A DNA stretch of 64,000 nt from an uncultured Ignavibacteriaceae bacterium (GCA_964507455.1 CAZDPY010000001.1:280855-344854), one strand, 5' to 3'. Shown: positions 40,627-62,318, numbered from the stretch's first letter. The notes: generated by a model from the sequence alone, not told the origin. Numbers and translations: made by a program.

Positions 40627-40866
40627 CTTGTGTCGGGCAGCATTAGTCGATAACCAGGAAAGAGCTGCACCAGTGGTGCCTCGGTCCAATCCTTTGGTTT
40701 TGGATGTCCGCTTATCTGACAGAGAATTCGTTGTGACCAAACCGTGACCACGATCGTCGTAAGTTATTGTATGATATTCAGCGATATAGCCAGCCGGTGG
40801 GGGGTTCAAGCAAATGATCCGGCTCGCATGTCGCCGTAACATGTTGCCTTGCAATGGCTTATAACA

Positions 40867-41032
40867 AATGGAGGTGGGGGGGAATCGAAATTGGCGATTT
40901 TTATAACTTTTTGCGCTTCTTCAAATTGCGTTACAACTCATTGTATTCCAAGAAATTCCAGTTTTTATTTGGTTTTATTTGTTTCTGGAAAATCAGGGTG
41001 TTTTTACCTCAATATGGCACAAATCTGGCACA
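40867..41032. repeat. ~166-bp direct repeat R1 (att-like / conserved 3'-flank element)
   Basis: Aligns with 44326-44490. The right ~80 bp (AATTCCAGTTTTTATTTGGTTTTAT.T.TTTCTGGAAAATCAGGGTGTTTTTACCTCA..TGGCACAAATCTGGCACA) are nearly identical and the left half is about 70 percent identical. Confidence 0.9.
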
Positions 41033-41053
41033 AGCGCTGCGAGTTCTGTGAGG

Positions 41054-41707
41054 TCATTCGCACAGCGCAATATTCCACTCCGGTTTGAATTCTTTGATCA
41101 TGCATTGCTCCCATTTTCTGATCTTCGTGTCATCATCAATTTCATGTGCGAAGAGCTGAACGCAACTCTTATTCTGCAGGATCAGATTATTCAAGTGGCA
41201 GTTAGTTTTTTGACCGTCCTTGTAACAGTTCTTCGGAGAAATGTGGCCATACCCGTTGTTGATACGTTTCTTGAATGAATCCCGGCACCGGCCTATGTAC
41301 ATGATTTTCCCTTTAATCACATACATGTAGAGCCCTTTTTTCTGTAACCACTCTTTCGCCGTTATGCAGAATCTACAATACTCGAGGTCACCGCAATTGT
41401 TCAAGAATTCCTTGTAAAAAGGATCACCACTATTCTTTAACTGCAACAAAAACGTTCCTATCGGCAAGAATAGGTCCCTATGTGTATAATTCTCCGCGTA
41501 GGCAGCAAGGTTCTTATACCGCTTATGCTGAATTGTCTGGGCGAGCGTCTTATTCGTCTTACAGGCGAAGACGTTGCTGTACACTGCTGTTTCGAAGTGA
41601 AGCTCAACTCGTTGAAATTCCAGGCTGACGCCCACTCCTGCGCATTTGAACGAAATAGTCATGCGTCGCTTTACCTCTGCATTATCACTTGTCGCCGGGT
41701 GGGTCAT
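41054..41707 (-). CDS. GIY-YIG nuclease-domain protein
   Basis: 217 aa (Met-16 at 41662 is an alternative start). GLYMYVIKGKIMYIGRCRDSFKKRINNGYG ... EQCMIKEFKPEWN gives the GIY..YIG..R..E..N order. Confidence 0.7.
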   Translation of the reverse strand: MTHPATSDNAEVKRRMTISFKCAGVGVSLEFQRVELHFETAVYSNVFACKTNKTLAQTIQHKRYKNLAAYAENYTHRDLFLPIGTFLLQLKNSGDPFYKEFLNNCGDLEYCRFCITAKEWLQKKGLYMYVIKGKIMYIGRCRDSFKKRINNGYGHISPKNCYKDGQKTNCHLNNLILQNKSCVQLFAHEIDDDTKIRKWEQCMIKEFKPEWNIALCE

Positions 41708-42935
41708 AGCGCGACCAGAAACTGCGCTTCAGCTTGTTTTCGAGCCGCAAGTCTACTTTGTAGTCGTCATGACTTGGTAGCCCACCCCAGTCGATTATTT
41801 TTGGCGCAAGCTCGTCGAGTTTACGAAGGTACCGAACGCCATAGGTGTAGTACTTCGACTTGGCGCTTCTGAGGATCGATTCCAGGAGGGCACGGTAGAT
41901 AACGCTGGCCGCGAGAAATCTCCCTTCTTTCTCAAATGTCTTTGCCCACGGCAATAACTGATAATAATAATCGCCGTTTAACCGACCTGGACGCTTGATT
42001 ATGTACCGCTCAATATCATCAAGCCGCTCCATTTCCATCATGAATTCCGCGGCGACGTAATCGAGTTCAGAGGACTGAAATATCTCCGCGATCTCATCTC
42101 CTATTACGCGTTCACGCACACTCTCTCCGATTACATCCAACAGCAGTGATAGAGTCTCTTCGCTGCGGTACCGTCTGAAGATTATCCACGCAACTTCTTC
42201 GGCTCTCGCTTTATCACCGAGCGCCACCAACACCTTGAACAGCAGCCTTTCCCGTTCATCGAGTTTGAACGTCTCATAAGGTGGAACCCTATCCAGCCAC
42301 TGAAGAGCGACGAGAGGATAACCGCATTCAAAATACACTTCCGCGATGTGAAAGTGTCCGGCTACCGGCAATTCCGGCCATTTGGCTTTACAGGCACGCT
42401 CGAAAAGCTCAGGATCTTTTAACTGTTTTGCAATAGACTCGATAGCAAGATACCAGTGATACTTCCTGTACTCGTCGGGTTCTCGTTCTCCTAACGACCA
42501 GAATTCATCAACCATGCATCGAAGAAATGATTCCGGCAGCAAGTTGGCGGAGTTTGCAATAATAGAATCGCGAACGCCGTATTCATCCTTTGCATACAGG
42601 TTGAGAACGATGTTGTATAACCACTCTTTGTCCTCACATTGAGATGCGTGGTGAACGAAGCTTTTGCAGGCAAATATCCGATACACATCACCGATTGATC
42701 CGTTGGAGTCGTCGGCCCTTCCGAACACGGCGTTATCGGTCTGCATAAATACAGCAACGAGTTCGACACCTTGACGCGGACTTTCCGCTACCCTGTCAAT
42801 CTCGTCCAACAAGCTTTCGAGTTCACGGGCATACGTCCCTGACTCATGATAATCTATAAACCGCCGTCCGCGCTTCAGCCCAGCTAGTCTCGATTTGATC
42901 GACTTAACAGCGTCTGAGTTAGTCATGGCAGCCAA
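41685..42935 (-). CDS. 416-aa all-helical protein of unknown function
   Basis: Long ORF overlapping the GIY-YIG gene by 23 nt. Helical-repeat-like composition and no catalytic motif recognised. Confidence 0.65.
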   Translation of the reverse strand: MAAMTNSDAVKSIKSRLAGLKRGRRFIDYHESGTYARELESLLDEIDRVAESPRQGVELVAVFMQTDNAVFGRADDSNGSIGDVYRIFACKSFVHHASQCEDKEWLYNIVLNLYAKDEYGVRDSIIANSANLLPESFLRCMVDEFWSLGEREPDEYRKYHWYLAIESIAKQLKDPELFERACKAKWPELPVAGHFHIAEVYFECGYPLVALQWLDRVPPYETFKLDERERLLFKVLVALGDKARAEEVAWIIFRRYRSEETLSLLLDVIGESVRERVIGDEIAEIFQSSELDYVAAEFMMEMERLDDIERYIIKRPGRLNGDYYYQLLPWAKTFEKEGRFLAASVIYRALLESILRSAKSKYYTYGVRYLRKLDELAPKIIDWGGLPSHDDYKVDLRLENKLKRSFWSRYDPPGDK

Positions 42936-43388
42936 TCAGTCTTGCAGTAGTTCCGGATGCTCGACCCTTAGCCAATCAAGCAATGCTTCTCGCAATTCTC
43001 TCGCCAGAGTTTTTGCTTCCTCGACCTCCGCCTCGGTGATCGTACCCGCCGCATCATAACTGACAATAGCTCTCTTTTTGCTTATTGCTTCCAAAGAAAT
43101 GATAATATCAGCATTGGGATCAATCGTAAATCGTAACGATTGAATAGTCCGATAATGCTGACCGGCACCCCCAGGAATACGATAACCGCTCACCCGTAAT
43201 GCAATGGTGGCACAACCGAGACAAGCATTGTATGCGATAGCCAGTCTCCAGTCGAGGGTAATCTCTTCTTTGGCGGCCTCTGCTATATCGCGGTCAACCT
43301 TGTCAAGCAGGTCTTTTATTTCTTGACGATTGGTGGTATGTCTTTTAAGCCACTTGCTATTTAGCCAGTCCTGTAAGGTCATCTTCAT
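42936..43388 (-). CDS. putative HEPN-like toxin partner of the MNT protein
   Basis: 150 aa, helical, immediately downstream of and overlapping the nucleotidyltransferase gene (the MNT-then-HEPN gene order). A canonical Rx4-6H motif is not evident, so the call rests on context. Confidence 0.5.
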   Translation of the reverse strand: MKMTLQDWLNSKWLKRHTTNRQEIKDLLDKVDRDIAEAAKEEITLDWRLAIAYNACLGCATIALRVSGYRIPGGAGQHYRTIQSLRFTIDPNADIIISLEAISKKRAIVSYDAAGTITEAEVEEAKTLARELREALLDWLRVEHPELLQD

Positions 43389-43995
43389 TTCCTAATATGA
43401 ACAGTTTCTCTGATTCCATGACATTTAGGACAAAGTTATTCTTCTCATGCAGTTTTTTCCTGAACTCATCTGAAGAATAGAGTGTCGGATTTACGCTTCG
43501 TTGCATGTTCTCTTCGACAGGTTTCAGAATTGATACCAACTCACGGAACGACAAAGATCCAATAACCATAAGGTCTATATCACTAGAGCTGGTGTCACTG
43601 CTATTGGCAACAGAGCCATATATCCAGGCAACATCAATTTGGCTGCCAGCTTGACTGCGAAGAACATCATGAAACACATCGACGATTCCAAAAGTTTTCT
43701 CGGCAATTTGTTTCAGCTCTGCGAATACAGGGCATTCTGTATTCGCTTGGTAGAATTTCTGGATGCCTATAGGTTCCATTTTTAGGATTCCCGCTTTTGT
43801 CAGCGATATGAGCTCACGCTGAAGTGAACCGGGCGCATCGCCTAATAACCTCACTGTTTCCCTGAAGTAAAACCTTTTGTTCGGATTCAGCAGAAAAAGA
43901 GTAAGGACCTTTCGTCGAATCTTAGAAAATAACGCTTCGCCGATACCTGAACCGACGCCGAACAGTGATTCTCTATTTGATTCTTTTGCACACAT
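43357..43995 (-). CDS. winged-HTH fused to minimal nucleotidyltransferase (MNT-type antitoxin)
   Basis: 212 aa. N-terminal wHTH (RRKVLTLFLLNPNKRFYFRETVRLLGDAPGSLQRELISLTKAGIL) plus NTase motif IYGSVANSSDTSSSDIDLMVIG (GS-x9-DxD). Confidence 0.8.
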   Translation of the reverse strand: MCAKESNRESLFGVGSGIGEALFSKIRRKVLTLFLLNPNKRFYFRETVRLLGDAPGSLQRELISLTKAGILKMEPIGIQKFYQANTECPVFAELKQIAEKTFGIVDVFHDVLRSQAGSQIDVAWIYGSVANSSDTSSSDIDLMVIGSLSFRELVSILKPVEENMQRSVNPTLYSSDEFRKKLHEKNNFVLNVMESEKLFILGNEDDLTGLAK

Positions 43996-44325
43996 TTCTG
44001 GAACAATCGATTCTATTAATGGAACACCTATGTCTTTTGTCGGAACAAATGAACTCTATTTGAGTACAAAAGTCAAGAAAAAACAGGCACTTTTTGAATC
44101 AGACAAATGGTCACCATTTATAGAATTCTGGCAACGAGATATCCGAATATGTCGGCAGATATCTATAACTGCCGGCATTTTGTATAGAAAAAAATAATTG
44201 GCACAGGCTAAAACAGCCACCTTGTAACTTACTACAAATAATTGACTTACACAGAATTCCGTGGAGGTTGTTACACCGAACCCAAAAATTCTGTAAGTTA
44301 TTGATATGTATGTAATTATGATTTA

Positions 44326-44490
44326 ATTGGAGGTGGGGGGAAACGAAATCTTGTATTTTTGTAACTTTTTGAGCTGCTTATAATTACGTTATAACTCGTT
44401 GTTTCTCATATAATTCCAGTTTTTATTTGGTTTTATGTATTTCTGGAAAATCAGGGTGTTTTTACCTCAGGTTGGCACAAATCTGGCACA
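44326..44490. repeat. ~165-bp direct repeat R2 (copy of R1)
   Basis: See R1. It ends 31 nt from the stop codon of the DUF3800 gene, just as R1 ends 21 nt from the stop of the GIY-YIG gene. Confidence 0.9.
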
Positions 44491-44521
44491 GAATAAGTGG
44501 AGGGGTCGTACAACGATTTTA

Positions 44522-45607
44522 TTAATTACACCCATCTTCTTCTTTTCTTTTATGCAAGTATGAAGCTATTGCATCAGCAGGATTGACCACCTCAACATCA
44601 ACTTCATAACGTTCAATTTTATCGGAAGGCCATACTGAGCACACGATCATATCTTCAATGTTTAACTTATTGAGTTTCTTAGCAAAGTCATCCTCGGAAA
44701 TAAGTCCGACTTTTGCTCGAATTAAATGGGAAATTGCACCAGCTATAATGTCGGCAATTTGAATTGCTTCATGATCTTTGGAATCAACTAGAATTAAATC
44801 ATTTGCCTTTAAGGGAAAGGTTCTCATTTTAAAACCGATTTTTATTACCAAATGTGGTTTTTCTTTATCCATTAGCGGTAATAAGTGCTCACGGTATTTC
44901 GCAAGTATTTTTGATTTGTCATGTAAAGTTATGAATTCCTGATTGAGCTGGTCGCCCCATTCGGATACCAGGTCAACATATGCGGGTATTGCTGGGTCCA
45001 AAGTGGCTAAATCACAATCCTCCAATACATCTCTTACGGTTTTTTTTGTCTCATGAAGTATCATTAGCTGATGACTATATTCTTCATGTTCTGTCTCAAT
45101 GGATTTGGCCATATCACTTATGTGCCTATAAAATTCCTCAATGGCCTCATCGGTTTTTACTCTAACCATATTGACGAGATTTTCATAGAACTCCAAAGCA
45201 ATTTGTTCTCCACAAAAACCTTGCATACATATAAAATGCATGTTACTCATGGCGCGACATGTGCCGTCGCTATAAAGATCAACCCCCATGTTCGCGGCTA
45301 CCGGTTCTATTAAAAGATCAATAGCCTTTGCTATAACCATATAGCGTTTATAATAGATTCCGGCTTTTATATTATTCTTAGATATGAGAGGATCGTTAAG
45401 TAAAGATAGAATATTTCGTCGCCCTTGCGCAGATCTTTTAAGTTTTACAAAATGCGCCTCTTGATGACTTGTTCCGAATATTTTAGAGAGAAGGTTTTTG
45501 GCGTCATTATCACTTATGTTAATGCTCACTAGAGTAAAAATTGGTTGGTCAGAATTAGTCAAATGTTGCCCTGTATTTCCAGCTTCATCAAATGATATAT
45601 TGATCAT
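44522..45607 (-). CDS. DUF3800-domain protein
   Basis: 361 aa. N-terminal INISFDEAGNTG and C-terminal IQIADIIAGAI are the two hallmark motifs of DUF3800. Confidence 0.75.
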   Translation of the reverse strand: MINISFDEAGNTGQHLTNSDQPIFTLVSINISDNDAKNLLSKIFGTSHQEAHFVKLKRSAQGRRNILSLLNDPLISKNNIKAGIYYKRYMVIAKAIDLLIEPVAANMGVDLYSDGTCRAMSNMHFICMQGFCGEQIALEFYENLVNMVRVKTDEAIEEFYRHISDMAKSIETEHEEYSHQLMILHETKKTVRDVLEDCDLATLDPAIPAYVDLVSEWGDQLNQEFITLHDKSKILAKYREHLLPLMDKEKPHLVIKIGFKMRTFPLKANDLILVDSKDHEAIQIADIIAGAISHLIRAKVGLISEDDFAKKLNKLNIEDMIVCSVWPSDKIERYEVDVEVVNPADAIASYLHKRKEEDGCN

Positions 45608-45630
45608 CTATTCCTTAACTCCATCAAGAT

Positions 45631-45765
45631 TGGGCGGGAGGGGGAGGAATCGAACCTCCCCGCACTCAACCCTATATTTATAAAAGAATATCTTCAAGCC
45701 TAATTAAAGTCCTCCCTTGTTATTGGAAACATTCCACCAGGCCTCCCGCGAGTGCAGCTCCCGCC
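45631..45765 (-). ncRNA. tRNA-like element / pseudo-tRNA (canonical T-arm and acceptor 3' strand, non-canonical body)
   Basis: The minus strand ends ...GGAGG-TTCGATT-CCTCC-CC-CTCCCGCC-CA (T-arm 45643-45659). Two possible 5' acceptor partners exist: GGGAGGA (45716-45710, giving an ~85-nt molecule with an 8-nt anticodon-type loop ATATT-CTTTTATA-AATAT) or GGCGGGAG (45765-45758, ~135 nt). Confidence 0.35.
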
Positions 45766-45903
45766 AACAAGTACATCAAATTGTTGATCGAAAAGATCAT
45801 GTTAACCTCCAAATGAATTAAAATATTCACTGAGAGAACGATTCCTTTCAAGGCTTCTCTAACTAGTTTGAATATATCCTCGAAACATAGGCATTGACCC
45901 AGA

Positions 45904-46587
45904 TTATTCTATTGCTATCTTCCTGCACATTTCTTTGTCATCAATCAGAGTTTGAAATTTGAGTGGATTAGATTCTAAATTTAATAATGGTCTGTGCATT
46001 TCAATAAGGTATTTTTCTATAATGAAAAGATCATCGAATTCAATCCAGCTCGCTTCCAAGTTTATATTCATCCAATCGATAATTTTTGACTCATCAGATT
46101 TCGAAAACTTATAGTTGTTCTTGTTCCTTTTGTCCTTAAGTGATCCGGGCGGTGGAGTAAATCCAAGCATGGCCCCGACACTTCGAAAAAAGGTCCCGTG
46201 ACCTTTCGCTCGTAGTTCTTGCCTAAGGAATCGAACCCTTAACGATTTCTTTTCCGCTTTACCGATATAGATTATTTTGCTATTTCTACTATCAAGCTCT
46301 AACTGATATTTTTCCGGAAGACTTGAACCATCGGCTAGTCGGATACAATATAGCCCTTTTTCATCTGGGACTAGGTTATCTATTCCCCCGATTTTGTGAA
46401 AAACACCTTCCTCAATCAGTTTCTTTGAAGTGTCTTTCGCAGTACTGATAGCCATTTCGTGTAATGTCTCAAAATAATTGGTTATATTTGTTATAATCTC
46501 AATAGCTTTTTCAGATATTTCGTAGCCATATTTTGGTGACCATACTTCAATTGTATTCTGTATGAGTTCTTTACTATACTCCGTCAT
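45904..46587 (-). CDS. GIY-YIG nuclease-family protein (second copy, unrelated N-terminus)
   Basis: 227 aa. KGLYCIRL...KIIYIGKAEKKSLRVRFLRQE...EKYLIEMHRPLLNLESN. Confidence 0.7.
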   Translation of the reverse strand: MTEYSKELIQNTIEVWSPKYGYEISEKAIEIITNITNYFETLHEMAISTAKDTSKKLIEEGVFHKIGGIDNLVPDEKGLYCIRLADGSSLPEKYQLELDSRNSKIIYIGKAEKKSLRVRFLRQELRAKGHGTFFRSVGAMLGFTPPPGSLKDKRNKNNYKFSKSDESKIIDWMNINLEASWIEFDDLFIIEKYLIEMHRPLLNLESNPLKFQTLIDDKEMCRKIAIE

Positions 46588-46629: not shown

Positions 46630-46833
46630 TCAAAACTTGATTTCAATCGCTTTTGAGTTTCTACCATTTCTTTTATTCGATTCAAGCCACTGCAATACGT
46701 CACGTTCCTTAAAACGAACAAACCGCCCCAGTTTGAAATGCGGAATATACCCAATATGCGTCCACTGATAAATAGTAGAAAGCTTCACACCGAGCAATTC
46801 CGACATTTCTTCTGGGGTGTAGAGTTTATTCAT
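46630..46833 (-). CDS. excisionase/AlpA-type (MerR-superfamily) HTH DNA-binding protein
   Basis: 67 aa. YTPEEMSELLGVKLSTIYQWTHIGYIPHFKLGRFVRFKERDVLQWL. Confidence 0.85.
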   Translation of the reverse strand: MNKLYTPEEMSELLGVKLSTIYQWTHIGYIPHFKLGRFVRFKERDVLQWLESNKRNGRNSKAIEIKF

Positions 46834-46859: not shown

Positions 46860-47078
46860 TCAGTCCTTACCATATATCTCTAGGTAATCCTCAATCTCCG
46901 GTATCGAAAACCAAATATGCTCACCGATTCTATAATACCGCAGTTTTCCAGGACCGGAATTTCCGGCCCTCGCGTTTATCCAGGCCTTTGAAACACCTAA
47001 TCTCTTTGCCAGCTCTTCCGGTGATATCAGGTAGGCAAGGAGACTTGAATCAAAGGTTGTACTATTGCCACCTTGCAT
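46860..47078 (-). CDS. second excisionase-type HTH protein
   Basis: The track ORF 46860..47282 overlaps the ATPase gene, so I prefer the internal Met at 47078 (MQGGNSTT...). ISPEELAKRLGVSKAWINARAG...YYRIGEHIWFSIPEIEDYL. Confidence 0.65.
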   Translation of the reverse strand: MQGGNSTTFDSSLLAYLISPEELAKRLGVSKAWINARAGNSGPGKLRYYRIGEHIWFSIPEIEDYLEIYGKD

Positions 47079-48963
47079 TTTCAATTTCCTCCTCAATTTC
47101 CTGGGCTTTGATTTTAGGCTGCTCAAGAAGTGCAATCCTGCGAGCTTCGATAAGCCTGTCAACCTCTTTTGCTGGTAGCGCATATTTTGCATTTGAGCGA
47201 TCAATGACTCTCTGCTTATCCTTTTCCCGAGCTCTGACATCTTCGACAAGTGTTGTGAGAATCGGAATCGGGTCGTCATCATTGATTTTTATATACGCGT
47301 GCCTCATTGGTTGACACATTACCCAGGCGATATATCGCTCCTTGATTTCCTCAATTGTGTAATAGGTTCGATTGGAGAGTTCCTCATCTCGGATGAACTC
47401 ATAAAACGGGACAACACTTCTTGATTGTCCTGTGCTTTTGGCGGTACTACGCGAATCGCTCCGGCCAGAAAAGGACGCAGATGAGTTCATATCAAAGTTA
47501 CTCGATGCAAGCGACAGCGACGATGAGTCTGTGTAGGACATATTACCATCTGATGACAAAACTCCAGAACTCGGAATCAAATGGTCAGCATGGCCAATTG
47601 CGGAACCGCTTGATGAACCAAAACCAGAACTACTTCCAACAGAATCGCCTTTCGAAATCGATTCTCCATGACTTTCAGATTGTGATTCCGTATTGACTAT
47701 GATCTCTCGGGTGGATTCTTCAGGTAAAATTATCCTGTGGTAAAGTTCATCCTTAATGAAATCGCCACTGATCTTCCCAGCGAACAACTCCTCAACTAGC
47801 TCCTCACTATCTTCTCGGTTCGATTTAAATGCGATTTTTATATCGCAGTTGGTCATAACATTTTCGTAATAACCAGGTATTTTTCTTATCTGAGCTAAGT
47901 TCTGGTAGCAAAGAAAAAGGTGGATACCAAACTTCCGAAGAGCTTGAAGTGAGTAGGGCAGGTCATCAGAAGTGAATTCAGCCGCTTCATCTACAATTAC
48001 AAAGAATGGTTTTTTCTTTGCCTGCTGTTTACTTCGTTGAAAGGCATAGTTAATCACTTGATCTACCAAAAGAATACCTAGAATTTGTTGGCATTCTCTC
48101 GATACTTTCAATGGGGCAAGGTTTACTAAGACTATTTTTCCATTCTCAATTGCTTCCCCGATATCAATGGTTGAGGTCTGTTGTCCAACAATTCTCCTTA
48201 TAGGATCAGAAAGGATCATTTTGGCAGCACGGTTAAGGGGTGCTTCAATCAAATTCACCTTATCTGAATAGGATTTTACTGCTTCAAATCCTTCCCACTC
48301 GCGCCGAACATAACTATTGTTGATATTCCCTAATGCGGCTTGTCTAAACAATGGATTTGCAATGCTCAGAAAATCCAATGCATCCCCCAAGGTTAAATGC
48401 GATTCAATAAGCGTCATTAAGAGATTGCGCTGCCAGCGTTCTAATCTTGGCTTTACTTCACTATCTGATTCGCCAAAGGTTTTCGCAATACCTCTCATGA
48501 CCTGAGAAGCATGTGCTGAAATATCCATCTGATTTCTAGCAAGAAAATTCAATCCAGGTGAGAATCTAGTGTCATTCGCATTGATTAGAGCTAACCAATT
48601 CTTATAACCATACCGCGTTGCATATGCAAGAATATCGTCATATAAAGTTCCGTGAGGATCCAAAAGCATAAGCCCTTGTTTGTTCTTTAAATGATAACGA
48701 ATTCGATTTTCAAGCATTTTGCTTTTACCGCGGCCAGTTCCGCCGACGGCCAAGGAATGGAGCCGTAAGCTCTTGGGGCTTAAACATATGTCTTTACCGT
48801 TGGTTATGTTTTGCCCTATTAAATAATGATTCCTGGACATTTCAAAATCTCCTTCATTGATAAAATGAGGGATTGAATATCCAATGGCGTTAGCATAGAG
48901 AGTTAAAGCCAGCAAAACCATTCCGCCGTAAAGGAGACATCTATTCGGCTTTTGGGTTTTCAT
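47062..48963 (-). CDS. membrane-anchored FtsK/TraD/TcpA-like coupling ATPase with Ser-rich C-terminal region
   Basis: 633 aa. N-terminal TM, Walker A VGGTGRGKSKM, LLDPHG, Walker B FFVIVDEAAEF, RKFGIHLFLCYQNLAQ. About 100 aa of low-complexity S/G-rich sequence precede a conserved tail. Confidence 0.75.
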   Translation of the reverse strand: MKTQKPNRCLLYGGMVLLALTLYANAIGYSIPHFINEGDFEMSRNHYLIGQNITNGKDICLSPKSLRLHSLAVGGTGRGKSKMLENRIRYHLKNKQGLMLLDPHGTLYDDILAYATRYGYKNWLALINANDTRFSPGLNFLARNQMDISAHASQVMRGIAKTFGESDSEVKPRLERWQRNLLMTLIESHLTLGDALDFLSIANPLFRQAALGNINNSYVRREWEGFEAVKSYSDKVNLIEAPLNRAAKMILSDPIRRIVGQQTSTIDIGEAIENGKIVLVNLAPLKVSRECQQILGILLVDQVINYAFQRSKQQAKKKPFFVIVDEAAEFTSDDLPYSLQALRKFGIHLFLCYQNLAQIRKIPGYYENVMTNCDIKIAFKSNREDSEELVEELFAGKISGDFIKDELYHRIILPEESTREIIVNTESQSESHGESISKGDSVGSSSGFGSSSGSAIGHADHLIPSSGVLSSDGNMSYTDSSSLSLASSNFDMNSSASFSGRSDSRSTAKSTGQSRSVVPFYEFIRDEELSNRTYYTIEEIKERYIAWVMCQPMRHAYIKINDDDPIPILTTLVEDVRAREKDKQRVIDRSNAKYALPAKEVDRLIEARRIALLEQPKIKAQEIEEEIENARWQ

Positions 48964-48995
48964 TTTTCAATCCCTCACTATTAAGGGTTCTTGTT

Positions 48996-49634
48996 TTACT
49001 TTTCAGATTGTTCAGAGTTATACATCTGGCGATCATACTCATCCATCAATTCCTCTTCCATGTCTGGGAATTGCTGCTTAACCTGTTTTTGAAATTGAGC
49101 CTTCCGTATAACTCGATCTCGTAGCTCTTTCTCAGCTTCATCCTGAAGTGTCCTGCGAAGTTTGCTCTGAAGCTTTATTCTGTTCAATTCTCCCTTAGCT
49201 TTTCGCAAATCCTTATCAATTGGAGCGTGCGAACCAATTTTATCCAATCTTTCAAGGACAGTCATTTTGCAGTTCGCAATCTCTTCATTGAGTTTTGCAA
49301 TCTTAAGGGCGGTTTCTTTTCTATTGAGTGCAGTTTCATGTTTTAATTCCTGGCGTGCTTTGTATACATTGACACGCCTAAGTCGTTGTTGTTCATATAT
49401 CCGGTTCTCATATTCTCTCTTCTCCTCCTTTATTAGATAGATCATCCTAAGCATTCGTCTGTATTTCTCGAATTGAAGGAGAAAGTCGAGTTCTTGAACC
49501 ATTGCATCTTTTTGATCTTCAGAGAACGATTCATTGACCTCGATTCTGGCCATGAAATCGTATCGCAACTTTTCGATTGATGCACTATTGAGAATATTTT
49601 TAACACTCATCTCGTGTTTTATTGGAAGTTTCAA
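48996..49634 (-). CDS. coiled-coil protein of unknown function
   Basis: 212 aa with a K/E/R/Q-rich heptad-like composition. Its start overlaps the upstream ORF by 4 nt. Confidence 0.6.
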   Translation of the reverse strand: MKLPIKHEMSVKNILNSASIEKLRYDFMARIEVNESFSEDQKDAMVQELDFLLQFEKYRRMLRMIYLIKEEKREYENRIYEQQRLRRVNVYKARQELKHETALNRKETALKIAKLNEEIANCKMTVLERLDKIGSHAPIDKDLRKAKGELNRIKLQSKLRRTLQDEAEKELRDRVIRKAQFQKQVKQQFPDMEEELMDEYDRQMYNSEQSEK

Positions 49635-49855
49635 ATCAAATCCTCCCTGAGTATTCTTCTGATTATTTCAGAGTTTTCCAAATCTTTGAGGGAAACCTTT
49701 TCCTCTGGTGAGTTGTCTTTGATAAGTCTATAAATCCCATAGGCCGCAAAACCAAAAAGAACAAAGCCAATCAAAGCTTCATTACTCATATCCTCATTTG
49801 CTTTTTTGGATTTGTCAGTGGTAGTGGTTTTCTCTTTATTCATAATAATCTCCAT
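49631..49855 (-). CDS. small single-TM protein
   Basis: 74 aa with one hydrophobic helix (ALIGFVLFGFAAYGIYRLI). Overlapping starts and stops indicate operon membership. Confidence 0.5.
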   Translation of the reverse strand: MEIIMNKEKTTTTDKSKKANEDMSNEALIGFVLFGFAAYGIYRLIKDNSPEEKVSLKDLENSEIIRRILREDLI

Positions 49856-50042
49856 CGTCTAGAATTTCATATTCACATTCCTCGACTTCTAAAAGGTCAT
49901 GATTATGTTGACGCCGTGGCTTTTTTAGGTTCTTTGAAGACATCAATAATGCTTGATTCTTCCTACGGTTTTCTTCTATTACATCTAAAATAGACTGGGT
50001 TATTACCCCCGCAGCGATTGCAACTACTATTGGTAGTGACAT
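49836..50042 (-). CDS. small single-TM protein
   Basis: 68 aa. N-terminal helix SLPIVVAIAAGVITQSIL. AAGGAG RBS upstream. Confidence 0.5.
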   Translation of the reverse strand: MSLPIVVAIAAGVITQSILDVIEENRRKNQALLMSSKNLKKPRRQHNHDLLEVEECEYEILDDGDYYE

Positions 50043-50243
50043 ACTAAATCTCCTTTTTACTTTGTTTGGAATTTGACATTCTGTAGGCGTATGTTATACT
50101 TGAAATAGAAATACGCCCTTTAAAGACATGAAAGCCCTGACACAGAAATTCCGATTACATAGTGGCCACTAGTATTTGGATGAATTTGTGACGGGGCTTC
50201 TTTTTTTCAGCAATAGGCATCACCTCCTTTCAAAATTGGCAAA

Positions 50244-50271
50244 CAAAAAAACCAGAAATATTAACTTCTGG
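50244..50271 (-). terminator. rho-independent terminator after the TPR-wHTH gene
   Basis: The minus strand reads CCAGAA-GTTAATAT-TTCTGG followed by TTTTTTTG. Confidence 0.7.
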
Positions 50272-50332
50272 CTTATTATAAAGGCGATGCTCACAAAAAA
50301 ATAATCAAGAGATTATCAAGATTATCAAGATT

Positions 50333-51853
50333 TTATTTATCCTCCGGTACAGTTAATTTATAGCCCCTTCCATATGATCCTTTGATTTCAAGATAAGGCC
50401 TGATTTTGTTATTCATGTTGTGAATGTGAACCTGAATGCTATGAGCCATATTTTTATGATATGTTTCATTCTTATATAATTCCGAAAAAAGAGCTTCATT
50501 GTCTAAGTGCAATGTCAGGTTCTGGACTAAAGCTTTAAATATAGCCAATTCCGTTGGCGTAAATTCCTTGCTTTCTTTTTCATCATCAAAATCTATGGTA
50601 TTTTCATCTAGTTTGATTGTAATTCCCGGCCTTTTAAATACGCGCGGCAAATTCTTCTTGAATCCATGAATCAAGCTTAAGATGTTGTCCATTATTAATA
50701 ATGCTTTAACCGTTACTGCTGATCCAATTGAATAATCTTCTTCAGCCAGTTGTCTAATATTATCCAATACCAATATCACCTTGTTTCTCTTTTCAATATC
50801 CCATGTGTGTCCTTGATTAGAAAGTAAACCATCCAAAGCCGTATATATGGTATTAGTACGATAAGGCATAGCAGCTATTGGAATCCTCTCAACACAATCA
50901 CGAAACCACTTACCTGCCTCATCAAAAATAAATACAGAAGCATAAATGCGGGCTATTCCCAACATAGTATCAGGTATATATGACAGAAGGTTATTTTTCG
51001 TGAAAGCATCATACATAGTAAAGAAATTTACATATGCATAATTATAGACTCTAAATCCAAGTGAGCAATTACTAGATAACAAATGTAGTTGAGGATCGAG
51101 TTGAAGGCCTTTAAGCACTTCGTACTTAGTGCCTTGTTCAAAGAAGTTTCTAGCATTTTGTGAATCACCTATCATTTGATAAATACGGCATTGAACAAAT
51201 GCATTATACTTTAACTCATGGTCAGATTTCTTCTCTAGACCAACAGATTGTCCAAGAGCTGCCTGGTTAAGCGCCTGGAGAAAATCACCCTTTTGTGCAT
51301 ATAGAAGTCCCAAATTCGATAATGCTCTTGATTGTGCGTAAGAAATATTTGACTGTTGGTAATATTCAATGCTCTTCTGTAGATAATAAATAGCGTTGTT
51401 CAATCTCATAGACATTTCATTTAGATTAGACATAAGATTCATCGAATCGGCCATGGTCGATTTGATATTTTCTGATAATGCAGTATCAAATGCTGTGCGA
51501 GCGTAACGAATCGCATTTTCGTAATCCATGATACTACTGGAGATATGAGCGGAGGTTAATTGTACAGTTGCTAGACCCTCCGGCTCAAAATTATCCTTAG
51601 CAATTGAGATAACTTCTTTTATCTGCTCTTTGCATTCAGATATCTGCTCATTAGTGCGATAATTGTTGCTACTCAGCAGTAAAGCATATGCTATAAAATC
51701 ATGATCTTTTTTTTTAAATCCTACATCTATTGCTTTTTTATATAAGTCTGTGGCTACCTTAAAATCTTTTGAGTTTGAAGCTTCATTTGCCTTATCAAGC
51801 AAAGACCTATATGTTTGGGCTTTGGTCATTTCATCCTTTCTATTCAATTGCAT
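50333..51853 (-). CDS. TPR-repeat protein with C-terminal OmpR/PhoB-type winged-helix DNA-binding domain
   Basis: 506 aa. N-terminal TPR-like repeats. The C-terminus FTPTELAIFKALVQN...HSIQVHIHNMNNKIRPYLEIKGSYGRGYKL resembles Trans_reg_C. Confidence 0.65.
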   Translation of the reverse strand: MQLNRKDEMTKAQTYRSLLDKANEASNSKDFKVATDLYKKAIDVGFKKKDHDFIAYALLLSSNNYRTNEQISECKEQIKEVISIAKDNFEPEGLATVQLTSAHISSSIMDYENAIRYARTAFDTALSENIKSTMADSMNLMSNLNEMSMRLNNAIYYLQKSIEYYQQSNISYAQSRALSNLGLLYAQKGDFLQALNQAALGQSVGLEKKSDHELKYNAFVQCRIYQMIGDSQNARNFFEQGTKYEVLKGLQLDPQLHLLSSNCSLGFRVYNYAYVNFFTMYDAFTKNNLLSYIPDTMLGIARIYASVFIFDEAGKWFRDCVERIPIAAMPYRTNTIYTALDGLLSNQGHTWDIEKRNKVILVLDNIRQLAEEDYSIGSAVTVKALLIMDNILSLIHGFKKNLPRVFKRPGITIKLDENTIDFDDEKESKEFTPTELAIFKALVQNLTLHLDNEALFSELYKNETYHKNMAHSIQVHIHNMNNKIRPYLEIKGSYGRGYKLTVPEDK

Positions 51854-51908
51854 GAAATATAAATAAAAGGGTGGGGATTTTCAACGAACAAAAAAAAGCA
51901 GAGAGGGG

Positions 51909-52310
51909 TTAACCCTCTCTGCTTTCAACTGCTTCCATGACCTCCTTTTCTACCTTTTCAACATTGTCTTCATGTTTCTTACTACCGCCCAACATGATCA
52001 GGTTTCGTATCACAATTTCCGTTCGAACCTGTTTACTACCGCTTTTATTGCTCCAGGCCCGGTTATGCAGGCGACCGTCAATATAAACACGGTCCCCTTT
52101 TTTGAGATACTTGGCCACTACGTCGGCAAGTCGACCCCATGCCAGAACATGGTGAAAATCCGTAGTTTCCTGACGTTCTTTGGATTTGGCATCGCGCCAG
52201 ACGTAGCTTGTGGCGATTTGGAATGACGCCACTTTTTGGCTTGAAGGCAATTCCCGGCTGGTCGGATCTGCTGTCAGATTACCGATCAGCTCTGCTTTGT
52301 TGAGATTCAT
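51909..52310 (-). CDS. ssb: single-stranded DNA-binding protein (no acidic C-terminal tip)
   Basis: I start at MNLNKAELIGNLTADP (52310); the track ORF extends to 52418. OB-fold pattern ..FQIATS...TDFHHVLAWGRLADVVAKYLKKGDRVYIDGRL. Confidence 0.85.
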   Translation of the reverse strand: MNLNKAELIGNLTADPTSRELPSSQKVASFQIATSYVWRDAKSKERQETTDFHHVLAWGRLADVVAKYLKKGDRVYIDGRLHNRAWSNKSGSKQVRTEIVIRNLIMLGGSKKHEDNVEKVEKEVMEAVESREG

Positions 52311-52665
52311 ATACATGAATCCTTTCACCAGCGATAAATTGATAATGTCGAGGCTTACGCTGGCTTGCTTCTCCGCTTTCCTCAATAGCATAGAGGGCTG
52401 GAGTAGCTGAAAATCCAATGGCGTATAATTTATCGAAGCCTGGATTTAAAGCCAAGCCGATGTTGCCTGTGGTCAGGTGAAAGCTGTCCACCAGGCTGTC
52501 GAGCGCAGTTCGTCAAGGTGGAGCCACGACCTACCTTGGACGGATACTGAGACTCTATGATATCCTGAATCACCTGCAGGCAAGCAGGGTACTTGAAAAT
52601 TCATTGTTGCTATTTGCGGCGAATTTTAACAATTTTAATCATTACAAAATCTATTAGGAGGAATC

Positions 52666-53292
52666 ATGAAAAAAGAAAAAGATGGTCAAAATCCTTTTAA
52701 TCAAGATTCGGATGAGGAAATAATAGAGCGTCTTATAAATATTAAAGACTATACACAAGAGACTCAGGGTTTAATCAAGGCAGAGGCAGAAAGCAGACCT
52801 GGTATTCAAGAAAAATATCTGAAAGTAAAAGAACAACTTCGTTCCATCGAAAACCAAATACTCGAACACTCAAAAAAGGAAGAACGAAATAGAAAGGATC
52901 GCTTCCCTGCATTTACAGTTGGATGTTTTCTGGGGGCGATTGCGTGGATTATCTTTTTGATTGCAGAAGGTGGAAAAAAGCCAATTGAACTCATATTTAT
53001 TTCAGTATTTTGGCTTCTAAGCGCTCCTCTATTCTTGATAATGTTGGATTCTAGCTTTAACCCATCGAAAAGCCCTTTAAGGTATTTTATTGGAATTGGG
53101 GGGCTGGCAATAATTAGTTTATTATTTGTTGGGAAATTAGCGCCTCATGAAATAGTTGTCTTGTTTATTTATTATTTTTTTATAGGATGGTTAGCTTCGA
53201 AGTTACTTAAGAATGTTGTCAAAAGAGATAGTGCCTATGGAAGATTGCTTTCAAAATTATGGCCAGATCTTCGAATAAAATCCAATAAATAA
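52666..53292 (+). CDS. membrane protein of unknown function
   Basis: 208 aa. GGAGG RBS, soluble charged N-terminus, then 4 hydrophobic helices. Confidence 0.6.
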   Translation: MKKEKDGQNPFNQDSDEEIIERLINIKDYTQETQGLIKAEAESRPGIQEKYLKVKEQLRSIENQILEHSKKEERNRKDRFPAFTVGCFLGAIAWIIFLIAEGGKKPIELIFISVFWLLSAPLFLIMLDSSFNPSKSPLRYFIGIGGLAIISLLFVGKLAPHEIVVLFIYYFFIGWLASKLLKNVVKRDSAYGRLLSKLWPDLRIKSNK

Positions 53293-53362
53293 CTTATTTT
53301 CAATTTTTTTTCATTTAAGCACCAAATACAAAGATCAAAAGCCCAGCCCCACAATTCCGCGC

Positions 53363-53395
53363 CGGACGGGCATCTAAGAGATGAAAGCCCGTCCG
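53363..53395. terminator. GC-rich hairpin between convergent genes
   Basis: CGGACGGGC-(15 nt)-GCCCGTCCG, a 9-bp stem. No clear U-tract on either strand. Confidence 0.45.
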
Positions 53396-53498
53396 ACCAG
53401 GGCAAAATACCATCTTATATTTCGCCCTGTTATCACAGGACAGCATGGCCCATTGAGGAGTAAGCGGAATTTATGAAGCCGGGTTTCGACTCAAATGA

Positions 53499-54608
53499 TT
53501 ATTCAATCAATGATTGAAGTCCTTTTTGAGGATTCGGAGTAATCCACGATTTTGAAAAAATGCTGTTTGGTTCTTCAATACTGAACATGTCAAGCGTTGA
53601 GAACCAAAAGAGGGCACTGCTTGAAACATCGCGTCCGAATTTAGGAAAGCTCGATAGAATATTTGCTATGCGACCCTTAGTATTTCCATCCTTTGATAAT
53701 TGACCGGGAACCACGAACAGAACAGTAAACCCTCGGATCGGTTCTAAATCGATATTCGAGACATTCGCAGACCTTTCATCTTTAACAAAGAGCCCCGATA
53801 CCTCGCCATTAGGATATTTGGTATAGAAATATCGATTCGCATGCCGTTTAGTCTTTCTATAAAACCAATACCCCAAAACCTTTTTACTGATATCAGAATT
53901 ATCATCAGTCCTGATAATCGGCATGCTACCCCGGTCAAATTCTGCGAAAAAACATGTGGTTCCTTTACCGCGAACATTAATGGCAAAAAACGCATCTGGA
54001 TAGACTGAGAGCCTTTGTTCCCTGCCCATCAAATTCATTCCGTAAACGAAGTCCCTGAGGATTTGGCCCTGTTCCCAAAATAGCAGATTGACATTACCAT
54101 TTGAATTATTACAGGCCAATTTTAATATAGCTTTGAACTCGGCGATTTTAATTGAGTGTTCGTAGAAGTGCGTTCTTGCTCTTCTATTTGACTCTACAAT
54201 TTTCCTAATATCCGATGAGCTAGCATCTACTATTTTGGGCAAAATACTACAGCTTTTTGGCCCTAAGGAATAGACCAATCTTGATAAGCCGTGTACGCCG
54301 CCTTCTGGTAAATCAGCTCTCCTCCTTCTATAAACATATTTCTCCTGATCCAGCTTTGTAAGGCGGCTCAGTAATGCTTTTGAGCCAAACCCGTATTTTG
54401 AAGGGCGTTTTTTGCCATCCGCCCCAATTTTGTATTCCGTTTCATGTGATTTTGGACTTTCAAGCAGGTGCCAGATTAATTTTGAATCAAGAAATCTGTG
54501 CTCATAAATGAGCTTCAGGATTTCTTGATCCCGCTCGGTAGGAACGAAATCAGGGGAATTTTTCCGTTTAGGGTGATTTCGTGATTTTTCTGGGCTGGGT
54601 TTCTTCAT
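53499..54608 (-). CDS. replication-relaxation (Replic_Relax) family protein
   Basis: I prefer the start MKKPSPEK at 54608 (GGAGA RBS 4 nt upstream); the track start at 54674 would run into the structured element. PTERDQEILKLIYEHRFLDSKLIWHLL.. is the family's N-terminal wHTH signature. Confidence 0.75.
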   Translation of the reverse strand: MKKPSPEKSRNHPKRKNSPDFVPTERDQEILKLIYEHRFLDSKLIWHLLESPKSHETEYKIGADGKKRPSKYGFGSKALLSRLTKLDQEKYVYRRRRADLPEGGVHGLSRLVYSLGPKSCSILPKIVDASSSDIRKIVESNRRARTHFYEHSIKIAEFKAILKLACNNSNGNVNLLFWEQGQILRDFVYGMNLMGREQRLSVYPDAFFAINVRGKGTTCFFAEFDRGSMPIIRTDDNSDISKKVLGYWFYRKTKRHANRYFYTKYPNGEVSGLFVKDERSANVSNIDLEPIRGFTVLFVVPGQLSKDGNTKGRIANILSSFPKFGRDVSSSALFWFSTLDMFSIEEPNSIFSKSWITPNPQKGLQSLIE

Positions 54609-54641
54609 ATAATCTCCAAGCATCCCGTAGGGATTCCTTTT

Positions 54642-55106
54642 TCGCGCGCCCCTCGTCGGCGGCCGAAAGTCCAATTATTTGGACGTCCGCCCCGCAAAAC
54701 CGAGCTGAAGGCGCAGGTTGAGCGGCTGGCGGTTCGAGCGCGCCCGACTTTGCTCGCTTCGATTTGCCCCACCGCTGAAGTCAGATATGCGGGGCAAATC
54801 CGAGTAAGGAAACAATTACTTGTTTCCGTCGAAGCCCAAGGCTCTCCGGGTTCCTGGTCTGCTTCGAATTTTATTAACCACCACAACCGTCACTGCCAGC
54901 ACAAGAAGCAGACGAGGTAGAGAGACGCGGGGAAGGGAGCAAAGTCGGGCGGTACGCACCGACATTATCCCCTTGCATATCAGCCACTTAATGGCTGATT
55001 AAAGTAGAAAAGCATAATTAGCTTTTCTACTTTCAAAATAGTCTTTTACAGACGAAAAACAAGGGGAAAATGTCAAGGTGCTATCCGACCGACGAGGGGC
55101 GCGCGA
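54642..55106. other. ~465-nt GC-rich nested inverted-repeat element (candidate large structured ncRNA, or ssDNA-active oriT/origin/ssDNA promoter)
   Basis: P1 pairs 54642-54659 with 55089-55106 (18/18). P2 pairs 54741-54755 with 54937-54951 (15/15). P3 pairs 54963-54975 with 55060-55072 (12/13). There are at least 7 local hairpins and no plausible ORF. Confidence 0.7.
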
Positions 55107-56244: not shown

Positions 56245-56985
56245 ATGGTATGCTATAACCATCTCATTCTTAATCATAAAAATATGCGGGATGAAAACGG
56301 GAAATTTCTTGGCTTTTATTCGCCAAGATATACACAGGTTCCCGATGAACTCTTTGACGAGCTCCTGGCGGAGCTATCCGGCTCGGAAACAAAGGTTCTG
56401 CTATATGTTGTCCGGCGGACTTTCGGTTTTAAGCGTGATTCTGACCATATAAGTTTATCTCAAATGGTGAATGGAATAACCAAAAAAGACGGCACCATTC
56501 TGGACAAAGGCACCGGTCTTCATAAAGATTCAGTTATAAAGGCTATAAAATCCCTTGTTGATAAGGGTATTTTACTTCGCAAAAGGAAGACCTCTGATCA
56601 GCATGGTTATACCGCGACCGAATATGCTCTGAATATCCGCAATAATACCTTGTCGGATAATCCGACAAGGGGGCATGTCCTAAAAAACCGACAAGCCTTA
56701 CCCGAAAAATCCGACCGACAAGAAGACAGTAGACAAAATACAGATATAACGTTTAGTAAAACTGTGGATAACTCAAAGGCTTTACAGAATAAGGAGCTTT
56801 TGAGTCAGATTATCATGACCTGTCGCGATCTAGATTCAATTAATTACTACAAAAAGGTCGTCAGGGAAGTTCCTAAATTCAAAATCCTCAGCGCCCTCAG
56901 CCAGGTAAAAGAAGCCCAAACCTTAGGCCGTGTGCGAAAAAATGCAGGAGCTATGTTTACGGATATTATTAGACGAGTTATTTAA
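56245..56985 (+). CDS. putative replication initiator / replisome-organiser-like wHTH protein
   Basis: 246 aa. YTQVPDELFDELLAELSGSETKVLLYVVRRTFGFKRDSDHISLSQMVNGI...TGLHKDSVIKAIKSLVDKGIL is the pattern of phage/plasmid Rep-organiser N-domains (recognised by eye). An alternative start lies at 56284. Confidence 0.6.
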   Translation: MVCYNHLILNHKNMRDENGKFLGFYSPRYTQVPDELFDELLAELSGSETKVLLYVVRRTFGFKRDSDHISLSQMVNGITKKDGTILDKGTGLHKDSVIKAIKSLVDKGILLRKRKTSDQHGYTATEYALNIRNNTLSDNPTRGHVLKNRQALPEKSDRQEDSRQNTDITFSKTVDNSKALQNKELLSQIIMTCRDLDSINYYKKVVREVPKFKILSALSQVKEAQTLGRVRKNAGAMFTDIIRRVI

Positions 56986-59105: not shown

Positions 59106-59950
59106 GCCTTCAATCTCTCATCAAAAGCTTCAACAAGTTTTTGTTTATCTTTAAGTGGAAGTAACAATAAGTGTATTACAATATCTGAGGGCAGATCCTT
59201 TTCGCAAAAAACAGAATGGTTATTTACCAATTCTCTTTTTATCTCATTCAAGAATTCCTCTGACACAGAATCATAGGACGAAATTGTCTCGCTTTCGTAG
59301 GTCAAAAATACAGGAAAACATAGAGAGTCAAAAATCTCATCCAAAGATCTGTTTCGGTCGATTAATTTCTTCAATTCAACTGAAAAAGGCCATGCAGGGT
59401 CTATCTTATTTTGAATCGCGGTAAATTCTGATCTAAGATAGTTATTGTCTGTATGCTCGACCAATTCGCCAACTACGGCATTTATGGCAGAATTGATATC
59501 TTTATAGAACTTTGATTCACCCAACCAGAGATTAAGTGTAGAATCGCTTTTAACTACATGGACTGCATCAAAACCTTTCACCGTATCATTTGCCGAGTCC
59601 TTAAAATATATTTTTGATATTGCAGGTAAGGAGCCATATTCTTGACGTATTATTGCATGTAGGAGTATTTCCCCTATTTCTCCTCGTTTTTTTAAATCTC
59701 TAGACGCATAAATTGCACGGGCCGCCTTTGCTGCCAATGCTATTAAGTTATCGGAACCAATCCCCACTCTCTCTCGCTCAGTCAATGCGTATTCTGGTAA
59801 CCATTCCATTAAATGACCGGCCAATTGCTCACAGCGCCATTCACATGATTCATAACCAGCACAAAGTCCAAGAAGGCTTGGTAATGGCTCTGCAATATTT
59901 ACTCGAACTTCAAGGAATTTTGCTGGCGTCCTAATAATAAATTGTGCCAT
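59084..59950 (-). CDS. hamA: Hachiman HamA (DUF1837, PD-(D/E)xK-like effector)
   Basis: 288 aa. KKRGEIGEILLHAIIRQ...KGFDAVHVV...LWLGESKFYKD is the hallmark DUF1837 core. Confidence 0.8.
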   Translation of the reverse strand: MAQFIIRTPAKFLEVRVNIAEPLPSLLGLCAGYESCEWRCEQLAGHLMEWLPEYALTERERVGIGSDNLIALAAKAARAIYASRDLKKRGEIGEILLHAIIRQEYGSLPAISKIYFKDSANDTVKGFDAVHVVKSDSTLNLWLGESKFYKDINSAINAVVGELVEHTDNNYLRSEFTAIQNKIDPAWPFSVELKKLIDRNRSLDEIFDSLCFPVFLTYESETISSYDSVSEEFLNEIKRELVNNHSVFCEKDLPSDIVIHLLLLPLKDKQKLVEAFDERLKACQIIAN

Positions 59951-59976
59951 TCTATTTGCCTATTTTCTTAATTCGT

Positions 59977-60306
59977 CTAGTCTTTTCCATTTACCCTTAT
60001 AGTCCATTTTTTAGACTCCTGACTTTGATTAAGTATCCCTTCACTCTCCAGCAACCCCAGAATTGTCCTTGATATATGACCCTCATGACCAACGTGCCCG
60101 GCATAAATGCCTAATTTTCTGCCGATTTCGGCATTGGTGTACCCCTCTTTTGGGCCATTTGATATCAAAAAATAAACCGCCGTCTTTAAGTCTACCATCG
60201 CTTTTTGAGCCAAGCGATAGGCTACAATTTCATCAGGCAGTTTGACTTCGATTGAATCGTTCCAACTGCTGGAAGCCTTTGAGTACTCTTGACGTTCGTT
60301 ATTCAA
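59977..60306 (-). CDS. small winged-helix-like protein
   Basis: 109 aa. ...GYTNAEIGRKLGIYAGHVGHEGHISRTILGLLESEGIL. Sits between the Vsr and hamA genes. Confidence 0.5.
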   Translation of the reverse strand: MNNERQEYSKASSSWNDSIEVKLPDEIVAYRLAQKAMVDLKTAVYFLISNGPKEGYTNAEIGRKLGIYAGHVGHEGHISRTILGLLESEGILNQSQESKKWTIRVNGKD

Positions 60307-60320
60307 CTTATTACCTCAGA

Positions 60321-60731: not shown

Positions 60732-60746
60732 AATCCAAATTTCAAC

Positions 60747-62309: not shown

Positions 62310-62318
62310 GTGTCCTTT

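Follow-up and report, generated by a model that had tools for sequence, protein, structure and literature searches.

Two direct repeats as probable junctions of serial integration at the tmRNA gene of an uncultured Zixibacteria genome

How did two long direct repeats come to bracket a small gene cassette in the genome of an uncultured bacterium of the phylum Zixibacteria, and why do their ends resemble the 3' end of a tRNA or a transfer-messenger RNA (tmRNA)? The question is raised by a 64,000-nucleotide stretch of DNA (GCA_964507455.1, CAZDPY010000001.1:280855-344854; the contig is called C1 below, so that the stretch is C1:280855-344854), which is referred to here as the window and from whose first letter coordinates are counted unless a C1 position is given. 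A preliminary description of the window had proposed that related elements inserted serially at a tRNA or tmRNA (ssrA) gene lying beyond position 64000. That proposal is supported by the ssrA gene itself, by an integrase gene adjoining it and by the position of the repeats downstream of ssrA: the repeats, R1 and R2, are very probably attR-type junctions of serial integrations into the ssrA 3' end, with a short cassette, B, and a larger island, A, stacked one behind the other. Other genomes and loci are cited below by G and L numbers.

Repeat finding in the window returned one family with two copies (40877-41032 and 44335-44490), which are direct repeats with 84% identity over 156 nt; the two repeats of about 166 bp first described were thus confirmed, and their limits were refined to 40869-41033 (R1) and 44328-44491 (R2). 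As had been reported, each begins 20-30 nt after the stop codon of a minus-strand gene, R1 starting 20 nt past the open reading frame (ORF) at 41054-41707 and R2 30 nt past the ORF at 44522-45607, which does encode a DUF3800 protein. Each repeat is composed of a 144-nt arm, P, and a core of 20 or 21 nt, a copy of ssrA that starts at the first base of the T-loop and ends with the discriminator:

40869-40889, minus strand: R1 core copy, the ssrA 3' end plus one extra C, TTCGATTCCCCCCCACCTCCA
40890-41033, minus strand: R1 P arm, with the arm-type pair TTGTGCCAGATTTGTGCCA at 41015-41033
44328-44347, minus strand: R2 core copy, TTCGTTTCCCCCCACCTCCA, with an A-to-T change in the T-loop part
44348-44491, minus strand: R2 P arm (of island A), with an arm-type pair at 44473-44491

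The intact gene with a matching 3' end that had been predicted to lie beyond the window was found at C1:359375-359736 on the minus strand (window-equivalent 78521-78882), 14.5 kb past the window end and on the same strand as the core copies in R1 and R2. It is a tmRNA gene, called by ARAGORN with the tag GDYDYAMAA and matched by Rfam RF00023 with 179.8 bits over model positions 1-374. Its last 20 nt, TTCGATTCCCCCCACCTCCA, take in the T-loop, the T-stem 3' strand, the acceptor 3' strand and the discriminator, and form the terminus shared by both repeats (20/20 positions plus one C in R1, 19/20 in R2), so that the tRNA/tmRNA-like ends are copies of the end of this genome's own ssrA. The neighbouring tyrosine integrase, also predicted, lies directly downstream of ssrA and comprises 366 aa, with a PF00589 match (9e-32), a SAM-like core-binding domain and a catalytic RHRH-Y region that is invariant among 10 homologues. 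Residues 1-70 have no Pfam match; in an AlphaFold model the N-terminus forms a three-strand sheet and a helix (strands 3-7, 10-17 and 20-27, helix 30-49, predicted local distance difference test score about 80), and the model aligns with full-length lambda Int structures over 373-376 columns.

A search of the whole assembly (3.47 Mb) gave R1 and R2 as the only full-length copies (self E=2e-90, other copy E=3e-45), together with a short third match, the terminal 24 nt of R, at C1:359375. R-like repeats scattered over the genome independently of islands, which would have indicated a dispersed repeat, are therefore not seen. That R might be a miniature inverted-repeat transposable element (MITE) or repetitive extragenic palindrome (REP), a structured small RNA or a local segmental duplication, its likeness to the tmRNA end being accidental, is next to impossible: these readings have the repeat itself in their favour and nothing beyond it, whereas both copies lie downstream of ssrA on its strand, terminal inverted repeats and a fold are absent, and the termini match the ssrA end at the positions given above. 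MITE and REP elements were accordingly rejected, as was a structured RNA or tRNA-like gene within R. In fact, ARAGORN and Rfam found no RNA or tRNA-like gene in the window, and for R RNAalifold returned no consensus structure (energy 0 on either strand), the minimum-free-energy z-scores were near 0 and there was no Rfam match. The conservation would be that of protein-binding blocks on DNA. As for a local duplication, each of the two repeats is more similar to copies in other genomes (88%) than to its partner (84%), which argues for two separate insertions.

The best-conserved feature of the P arm is the pair TTGTGCCA-N3-TTGTGCCA. The motif GTGCCA-N5-GTGCCA occurs exactly three times in the 3.47 Mb, always on one strand. 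Two of the occurrences form the distal end of R1 and that of R2; the third, as TTGTGCCATGTTTGTGCCA, stands 78 nt past ssrA and just before the start of the integrase gene (int), on what is the P' arm. With one pair 126 nt ahead of the 20-nt core and another 78 nt behind it, the reconstructed attP would measure about 262 bp. The non-tmRNA part of R is assigned to the P arm of the element from the polarity of the junction, in which the P arm lies upstream of the displaced core. Moreover, the motif changes with the integrase. Orthologous integrases (75-96% identity) beside ssrA in G015, G051 and G037 are accompanied at the same place by TGTGCC(A/G)-N3-TTGTGCCA, and paralogous integrases (57-60% identity) beside tRNA-Ser genes by TGTGAC(C/G)A pairs, of the TGTGACCA type, in four of the five inspected, the remaining one, in G044, keeping a TGTGCCA pair. 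These tRNA-Ser integrases (L104-L108, in G018, G013, G001, G008 and G044) stand directly after tRNA-Ser, with the direct-repeat pair just before the int start.

A motif that is repeated on both arms, distinct from the core and variable with the integrase clade is what an arm-type site would look like, and the TTGTGCCA pair is accordingly predicted to be the site for the N-terminal domain of the integrase; the suggestion, made in the preliminary description, that the distal part of R holds arm sites fits these observations. The A-rich blocks of the P arm are probably sites for Xis and DNA-bending proteins, and the crossover point would probably fall within GATTCCCCCC. In phage lambda, attP carries the arm-type sites P1, P2 and P'1-3, with Xis and integration host factor sites in the P arm. 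The present site resembles it in having directly repeated putative arm sites, unrelated to the core, on both arms, and in its cognate excisionase gene, and the modelled N-terminus of the integrase may be a further domain of the arm-binding kind; it differs in motif sequence, spacing and target.

The arm is not a peculiarity of this genome. Among 39 genera from the same family and order, 20 have a full-length R, at 70-88% identity, whereas ssrA itself is less alike between the same genomes (69-76%). Forty-four distinct copies could be aligned and are colinear, and they stand mostly in arrays downstream of ssrA, often without an integrase. Conservation along R in the 44 copies is as follows:

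arm pair: 1.58 bits per column
CAAAACCAAATAAAAACTGGAA block: 1.47 bits per column
core, left part (TTCGATT): 1.47 bits per column
core, C-run: 1.32 bits per column
core, right part (ACCTCCA): 1.13 bits per column

It had been noted as an oddity that the distal part of the two repeats is better conserved than their tRNA-like core, and this holds across the family, the arm pair being the best-conserved part of all (1.58 against 1.13-1.47 for the core). A function as RNA or promoter had also been suggested for this part, which has fared less well: besides the lack of RNA structure, no sigma-70-like promoter or terminator was found in R1 or R2. It is very improbable that the distal motif is a regulatory element, either a promoter of the sigma-54 type, read on the plus strand as TGGCAC-N5-TGGCA, or another promoter or terminator linked to cargo genes. 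The plus strand of the pair does read TGGCACAAATCTGGCAC, with GG and GC at sigma-54 spacing; nevertheless, such a promoter would fire antisense into the upstream gene and, from the third copy, antisense into ssrA, the TGTGACCA pairs of the paralogues lose the -12 GC and keep the direct-repeat form, and contigs from other phyla have a pair on either side of a tRNA-like core.

These other phyla were reached by a scan of metagenome and viral contigs in which two TGTGCC pairs had to be separated by 210-240 nt; it gave 29 contigs (L112-L140). In most of those inspected the pairs flank a tRNA-3'-end-like core in the attP layout, and ten contigs also carry an integrase-like match by tblastn. The pairs, of the form TGTGCC-N3-TTTGTGCCA, surround cores of many sequences, and the set includes a family of near-identical contigs. 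The arm motif thus seems to be common to a very broad group of integrases with swappable cores. One contig, L114, is apparently circular (7,080 nt, 127-nt terminal overlap) and carries a MobA/MobL relaxase, an AAA_25 (RepA-like) protein, an HTH_17/AlpA protein and an attP-like site in which two pairs surround a tRNA-like core. The island A integrase, as tblastn query, had no match on this contig (E<=1e-5). None of the 29 contigs is an excised attP form of the Zixibacteria R family with int.

How, then, is the locus built? Read on the minus strand, its order is ssrA, island A (34,176 bp), R2, cassette B (3,438 bp), R1 and a conserved module. The compositional switch, placed at R1 in the preliminary description, actually occurs at R2, since the GC content is 0.454 in the left flank, 0.448 in cassette B and 0.401 in island A (genome 0.450). 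Left of R1, no further cores or arm pairs were found within 120 kb. The module and cassette B consist of:

40690-40868, minus strand: conserved module past R1 (the B' module), with TGGTCAC-N4-TGGTCAC at 40733-40750
41054-41707, minus strand: 217-aa ORF, last gene of cassette B, with only a GIY-YIG-like motif, GLYMYV...KIMYIGRC
41685-42935, minus strand: DUF6880 protein of 416 aa, cargo of cassette B (Pfam 2.5e-42)
42936-43388, minus strand: PDC-M05B, partner of the nucleotidyltransferase (PADLOC 3.2e-51)
43357-43995, minus strand: PDC-M05A, Pol-beta-type nucleotidyltransferase (PADLOC 8e-70; Pfam Polbeta 2.5e-07)
43996-44327, minus strand: non-coding leader of cassette B (P' side), with a pseudo-core at 44262-44283 and a single TGTGCCA at about 44200-44206

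The module would supply the view of the target before insertion. Over 139 nt it shares 81% identity with the sequence directly 3' of ssrA in the relative G013, and it recurs past the terminal R copy in G008, G016, G037 and L072. Since the ssrA of G013 joins the module directly, 37.7 kb would have been inserted here between the ssrA core and the module; the uninterrupted junction of target and flank is thus seen in G013, with the caveat that the module may belong to an older element. Synteny of the chromosomal flanks with relatives is too poor across genera to fix the ancestral locus beyond the 139-nt module. The TGGTCAC pair of the module stands 120 nt past the core and is an inverted version of the GTGACCA pair seen with the tRNA-Ser integrases, and in G050 and L090 the module begins a PDC-M05/DUF6880 cassette that ends in a TGGTCAC pair, 41 nt and a core (L069:9999-12666; L090:2659-5329). 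The module may therefore mark a second family of ssrA-specific elements, as their P' arm, in which case it would not be truly chromosomal.

Cassette B does contain the four ORFs first described, none of which is a recombinase: there is no int, no xis and no PF00589 match between R1 and R2. The ORF next to R1, earlier labelled a GIY-YIG gene, could not be upheld as such, because it has the motif and no family match in Pfam, NCBIfam or PADLOC; its homologue (55% aa) adjoins an R copy in L086. The Pfam GIY_YIG_2 protein of the locus is the one at 45904-46587, in island A. In the leader, the pseudo-core GGGTTCGGTGTAACAACCTCCA, a degenerate ssrA-end-like sequence, follows the R2 core by about 45 nt, and leaders of this type, with a pseudo-core at about the same distance, are present behind the R cores of at least eight further cassettes from other genomes.

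Island A carries int, genes for an isochorismatase, an ATP-binding cassette (ABC) transporter, DUF932, a Mza cluster (MzaB, MzaC, DUF4420) and Hachiman HamA/HamB, followed by Replic_Relax, a single-stranded DNA-binding protein (SSB), a TraD/TraG-like coupling protein, two HTH_17 proteins, GIY_YIG_2 and DUF3800. Its part within the window comprises:

44522-46587, minus strand: distal cargo, namely the DUF3800 protein, a tRNA-3'-end-like fragment (45631-45680) and the GIY_YIG_2 protein
46630-46833, minus strand: excisionase-family helix-turn-helix protein, xis (Pfam HTH_17 1.6e-16; NCBIfam TIGR01764 above cut-off)
46860-54674, minus strand: mobilisation backbone, namely the second HTH_17 protein, the TraD/TraG-like coupling protein, a tetratricopeptide-repeat and winged-helix (TPR-wHTH) protein, SSB and Replic_Relax
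56982-64000, minus strand: defence cargo, namely Hachiman HamA/HamB and the start of a Dcm/AIPR/Mza cluster that runs past the window

With its xis, relaxase-like gene, coupling protein, SSB and defence systems, island A looks like an integrative mobilisable element (IME). Homologues of its xis adjoin R in G051 and G049. The Mza-type cluster (MzaB HATPase, MzaC Z1 and DUF4420) is complete-looking and adjoins Hachiman (L030:381-5639; window 59977-64000). The fragment at 45631-45680, on the minus strand between the GIY_YIG_2 and DUF3800 genes, consists of a perfect T-arm and an acceptor-like 3' strand, GGGAGGTTCGATTCCTCCCCCTCCCGCCCA; it has no good match among the 46 tRNA and tmRNA genes called by ARAGORN in this genome (the best is tRNA-SeC, 22/27), and is possibly an att scar brought from another host.

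The proposed sequence of events is that cassette B, or its parent element, would have inserted first at the ssrA end, and that island A would have inserted later into the regenerated end, pushing cassette B away from the gene. The distal conserved part of R would then be the docking platform of the recombination complex, not an RNA, and cassette B a stripped-down relative of the same element family. Cassette B could now move only with the int and xis of island A, in a recombination between two cores or in a joint excision with A, or else it may simply be fixed in place.

The other genomes help to judge this scheme. R stands downstream of ssrA, on the same strand, in at least nine genomes (G000, G001, G013, G018, G037, G040, G044, G051 and G060), and in G051 the layout matches the present one, with ssrA and an integrase of 75% identity followed at 25 kb by one R copy and, after a further 3.7 kb, by another. 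The cargo of the cassettes is varied, including a resistance-nodulation-division (RND) efflux pump, an ABC transporter with an ArsR regulator, an extracytoplasmic function (ECF) sigma factor, DJ-1/PfpI, and toxin-antitoxin-like and defence pairs. A cassette of G049 is homologous to cassette B, with the same type of leader, a DUF6880 gene 85% identical at the nt level and R at its bounds. In G049 a 5'-truncated xis, 93% nt identical to that of island A, adjoins R in the cassette, which suggests that such cassettes are stripped-down derivatives of full elements. The PDC-M05/DUF6880 trio of G050 and L090 stands under the other end type mentioned above, from which it follows that cargo moves between end types.

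Some of these arrays can also be read in another way. It is unlikely, although not without arguments, that integrase-less cassettes of 1.3-8 kb are real mobile units captured as in an integron, each excised and inserted on its own at ssrA or another core with an integrase supplied in trans and with the 166-bp R as the sole requirement in cis, in which case the arrays would be working platforms rather than graveyards of decayed islands. Similarly doubtful is the version in which the Zixibacteria ssrA locus exchanges such cassettes, each with a complete R, one by one between genomes, TGTGCCA-arm integrases being supplied by transient elements such as island A and the arm being kept by selection for mobility. 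Both gain from arrays in which up to six or seven R copies follow one another at intervals of 1.3-6 kb on a contig lacking an integrase (G060, G001, G044), from PDC-M05A/B and DUF6880 occurring in different genomes with different end modules (G050, L090), and from a cassette with matching ends and near-equal length (3,435 vs 3,458 bp spacing) common to two families of the order. In G060 (L061-L062, G060:C8 2775-23402), where the six or seven copies lie behind ssrA, the cores degrade with distance from the gene and four arm pairs stay perfect. On the other hand, the truncated xis in the G049 cassette marks a deletion derivative of a full element, the retention of R is partly survivorship, as a cassette that has lost R is no longer counted, no integrase of the R-associated family was found anywhere in G060 (E<=1e-20), and no circular cassette of the family appeared in the metagenome and viral scans. 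Integrons and clusters of attC sites lacking integron integrases (CALINs) likewise present rows of promoter-poor small cassettes parted by a recurring site, often with no integrase nearby; however, neither an attC-like imperfect palindrome nor a fold is seen in R, the integrase is not of the IntI type (it scores 84 bits with the integron-integrase models against a cut-off of 265 bits) and the anchor is a tmRNA gene, not attI.

Serial integration at ssrA remains the preferred explanation, and several observations weigh against it. The array contigs of G001, G013, G044 and G060 carry R copies and no PF00589 match, and since G060 lacks the family integrase altogether, arms persist there without their presumed binding protein. 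In G013 (L064, G013:C27; 4807-5004, 12873-13372) a complete R, preceded by a TGGTCAC-type pair, lies 8 kb past the apparently uninterrupted ssrA junction, so that simple serial insertion at ssrA is insufficient in this case. Furthermore, R copies and ssrA are on different contigs in G041 and G008, G049 (a 93%-complete genome) has no full-length tmRNA match, and the P' side of cassette B has the single TGTGCCA in place of an arm pair. A G049 locus (L101, G049:C1:11188-12282) holds an integrase 93% identical to that of island A, which is abutted by a coding sequence and has no tmRNA gene beside it.

Among described systems the closest is the ssrA-GI family of genomic islands of Dehalococcoides, in which tandem islands are bounded by a 20-bp ssrA repeat with a conserved motif of 15 bp beside each repeat, a large serine recombinase (DsiB, CcrB-like) is encoded, and 15 of 31 units lack the integration module and were proposed to be cis-mobilisable (2011, PMC3146451). 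Both share an extra conserved sequence just upstream of each repeat, insertion in the T-loop region and the presence of units without an integration module. They differ in that a lambda-type tyrosine integrase with an excisionase takes the place of the DsiB serine recombinase here, in the 144-nt conserved arm with paired arm-type sites, and in the host phylum, Zixibacteria. The Islander survey described attP sites of about 250 bp, tandem arrays and the tmRNA gene as the most enriched target, and counted a tandem member only where it encodes an integrase of its own (Hudson et al. 2015, PMC4383910). As in such islands (see also Williams 2002, 2003), the integrase adjoins the regenerated target gene, here ssrA, the displaced 3' fragment lies at the far end in direct orientation and the attP, at about 262 bp, is of similar size; unlike them, cassette B has no integrase of its own, island A alone providing one, and an order-wide arm at 70-88%, above ssrA, is unusual. 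In addition, cassette B, lying between the R2 and R1 cores without recombination or transfer genes, would correspond to a cis-mobilisable element (CIME) of the kind known from the accretion of streptococcal integrative conjugative elements (ICEs) and IMEs, being an integrase-less, att-flanked segment in tandem with an element that bears int and xis (PMC5704250). It differs in host, target gene and integrase family; mobilisation of cassette B may be envisaged by analogy. A literature search found no published description of such islands in Zixibacteria.

The locus therefore represents a known kind of island, that of serial tmRNA-targeting elements, whose unusual part is a well-conserved integrase docking arm, and it provides the first precise map of an ssrA integration hotspot, with its integrase and full attP, in the uncultured phylum Zixibacteria. 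The arm motif, together with its TGTGACCA change in the tRNA-Ser paralogues, offers a handle to find island ends and to pair integrases with att sites in metagenomes. This is useful for island callers, which now demand an integrase in every tandem unit, as well as for integrase bioprospecting. Finally, the locus illustrates the traffic of defence systems (Hachiman, Mza, PDC-M05), which are imported and later stay behind as integrase-less cassettes.

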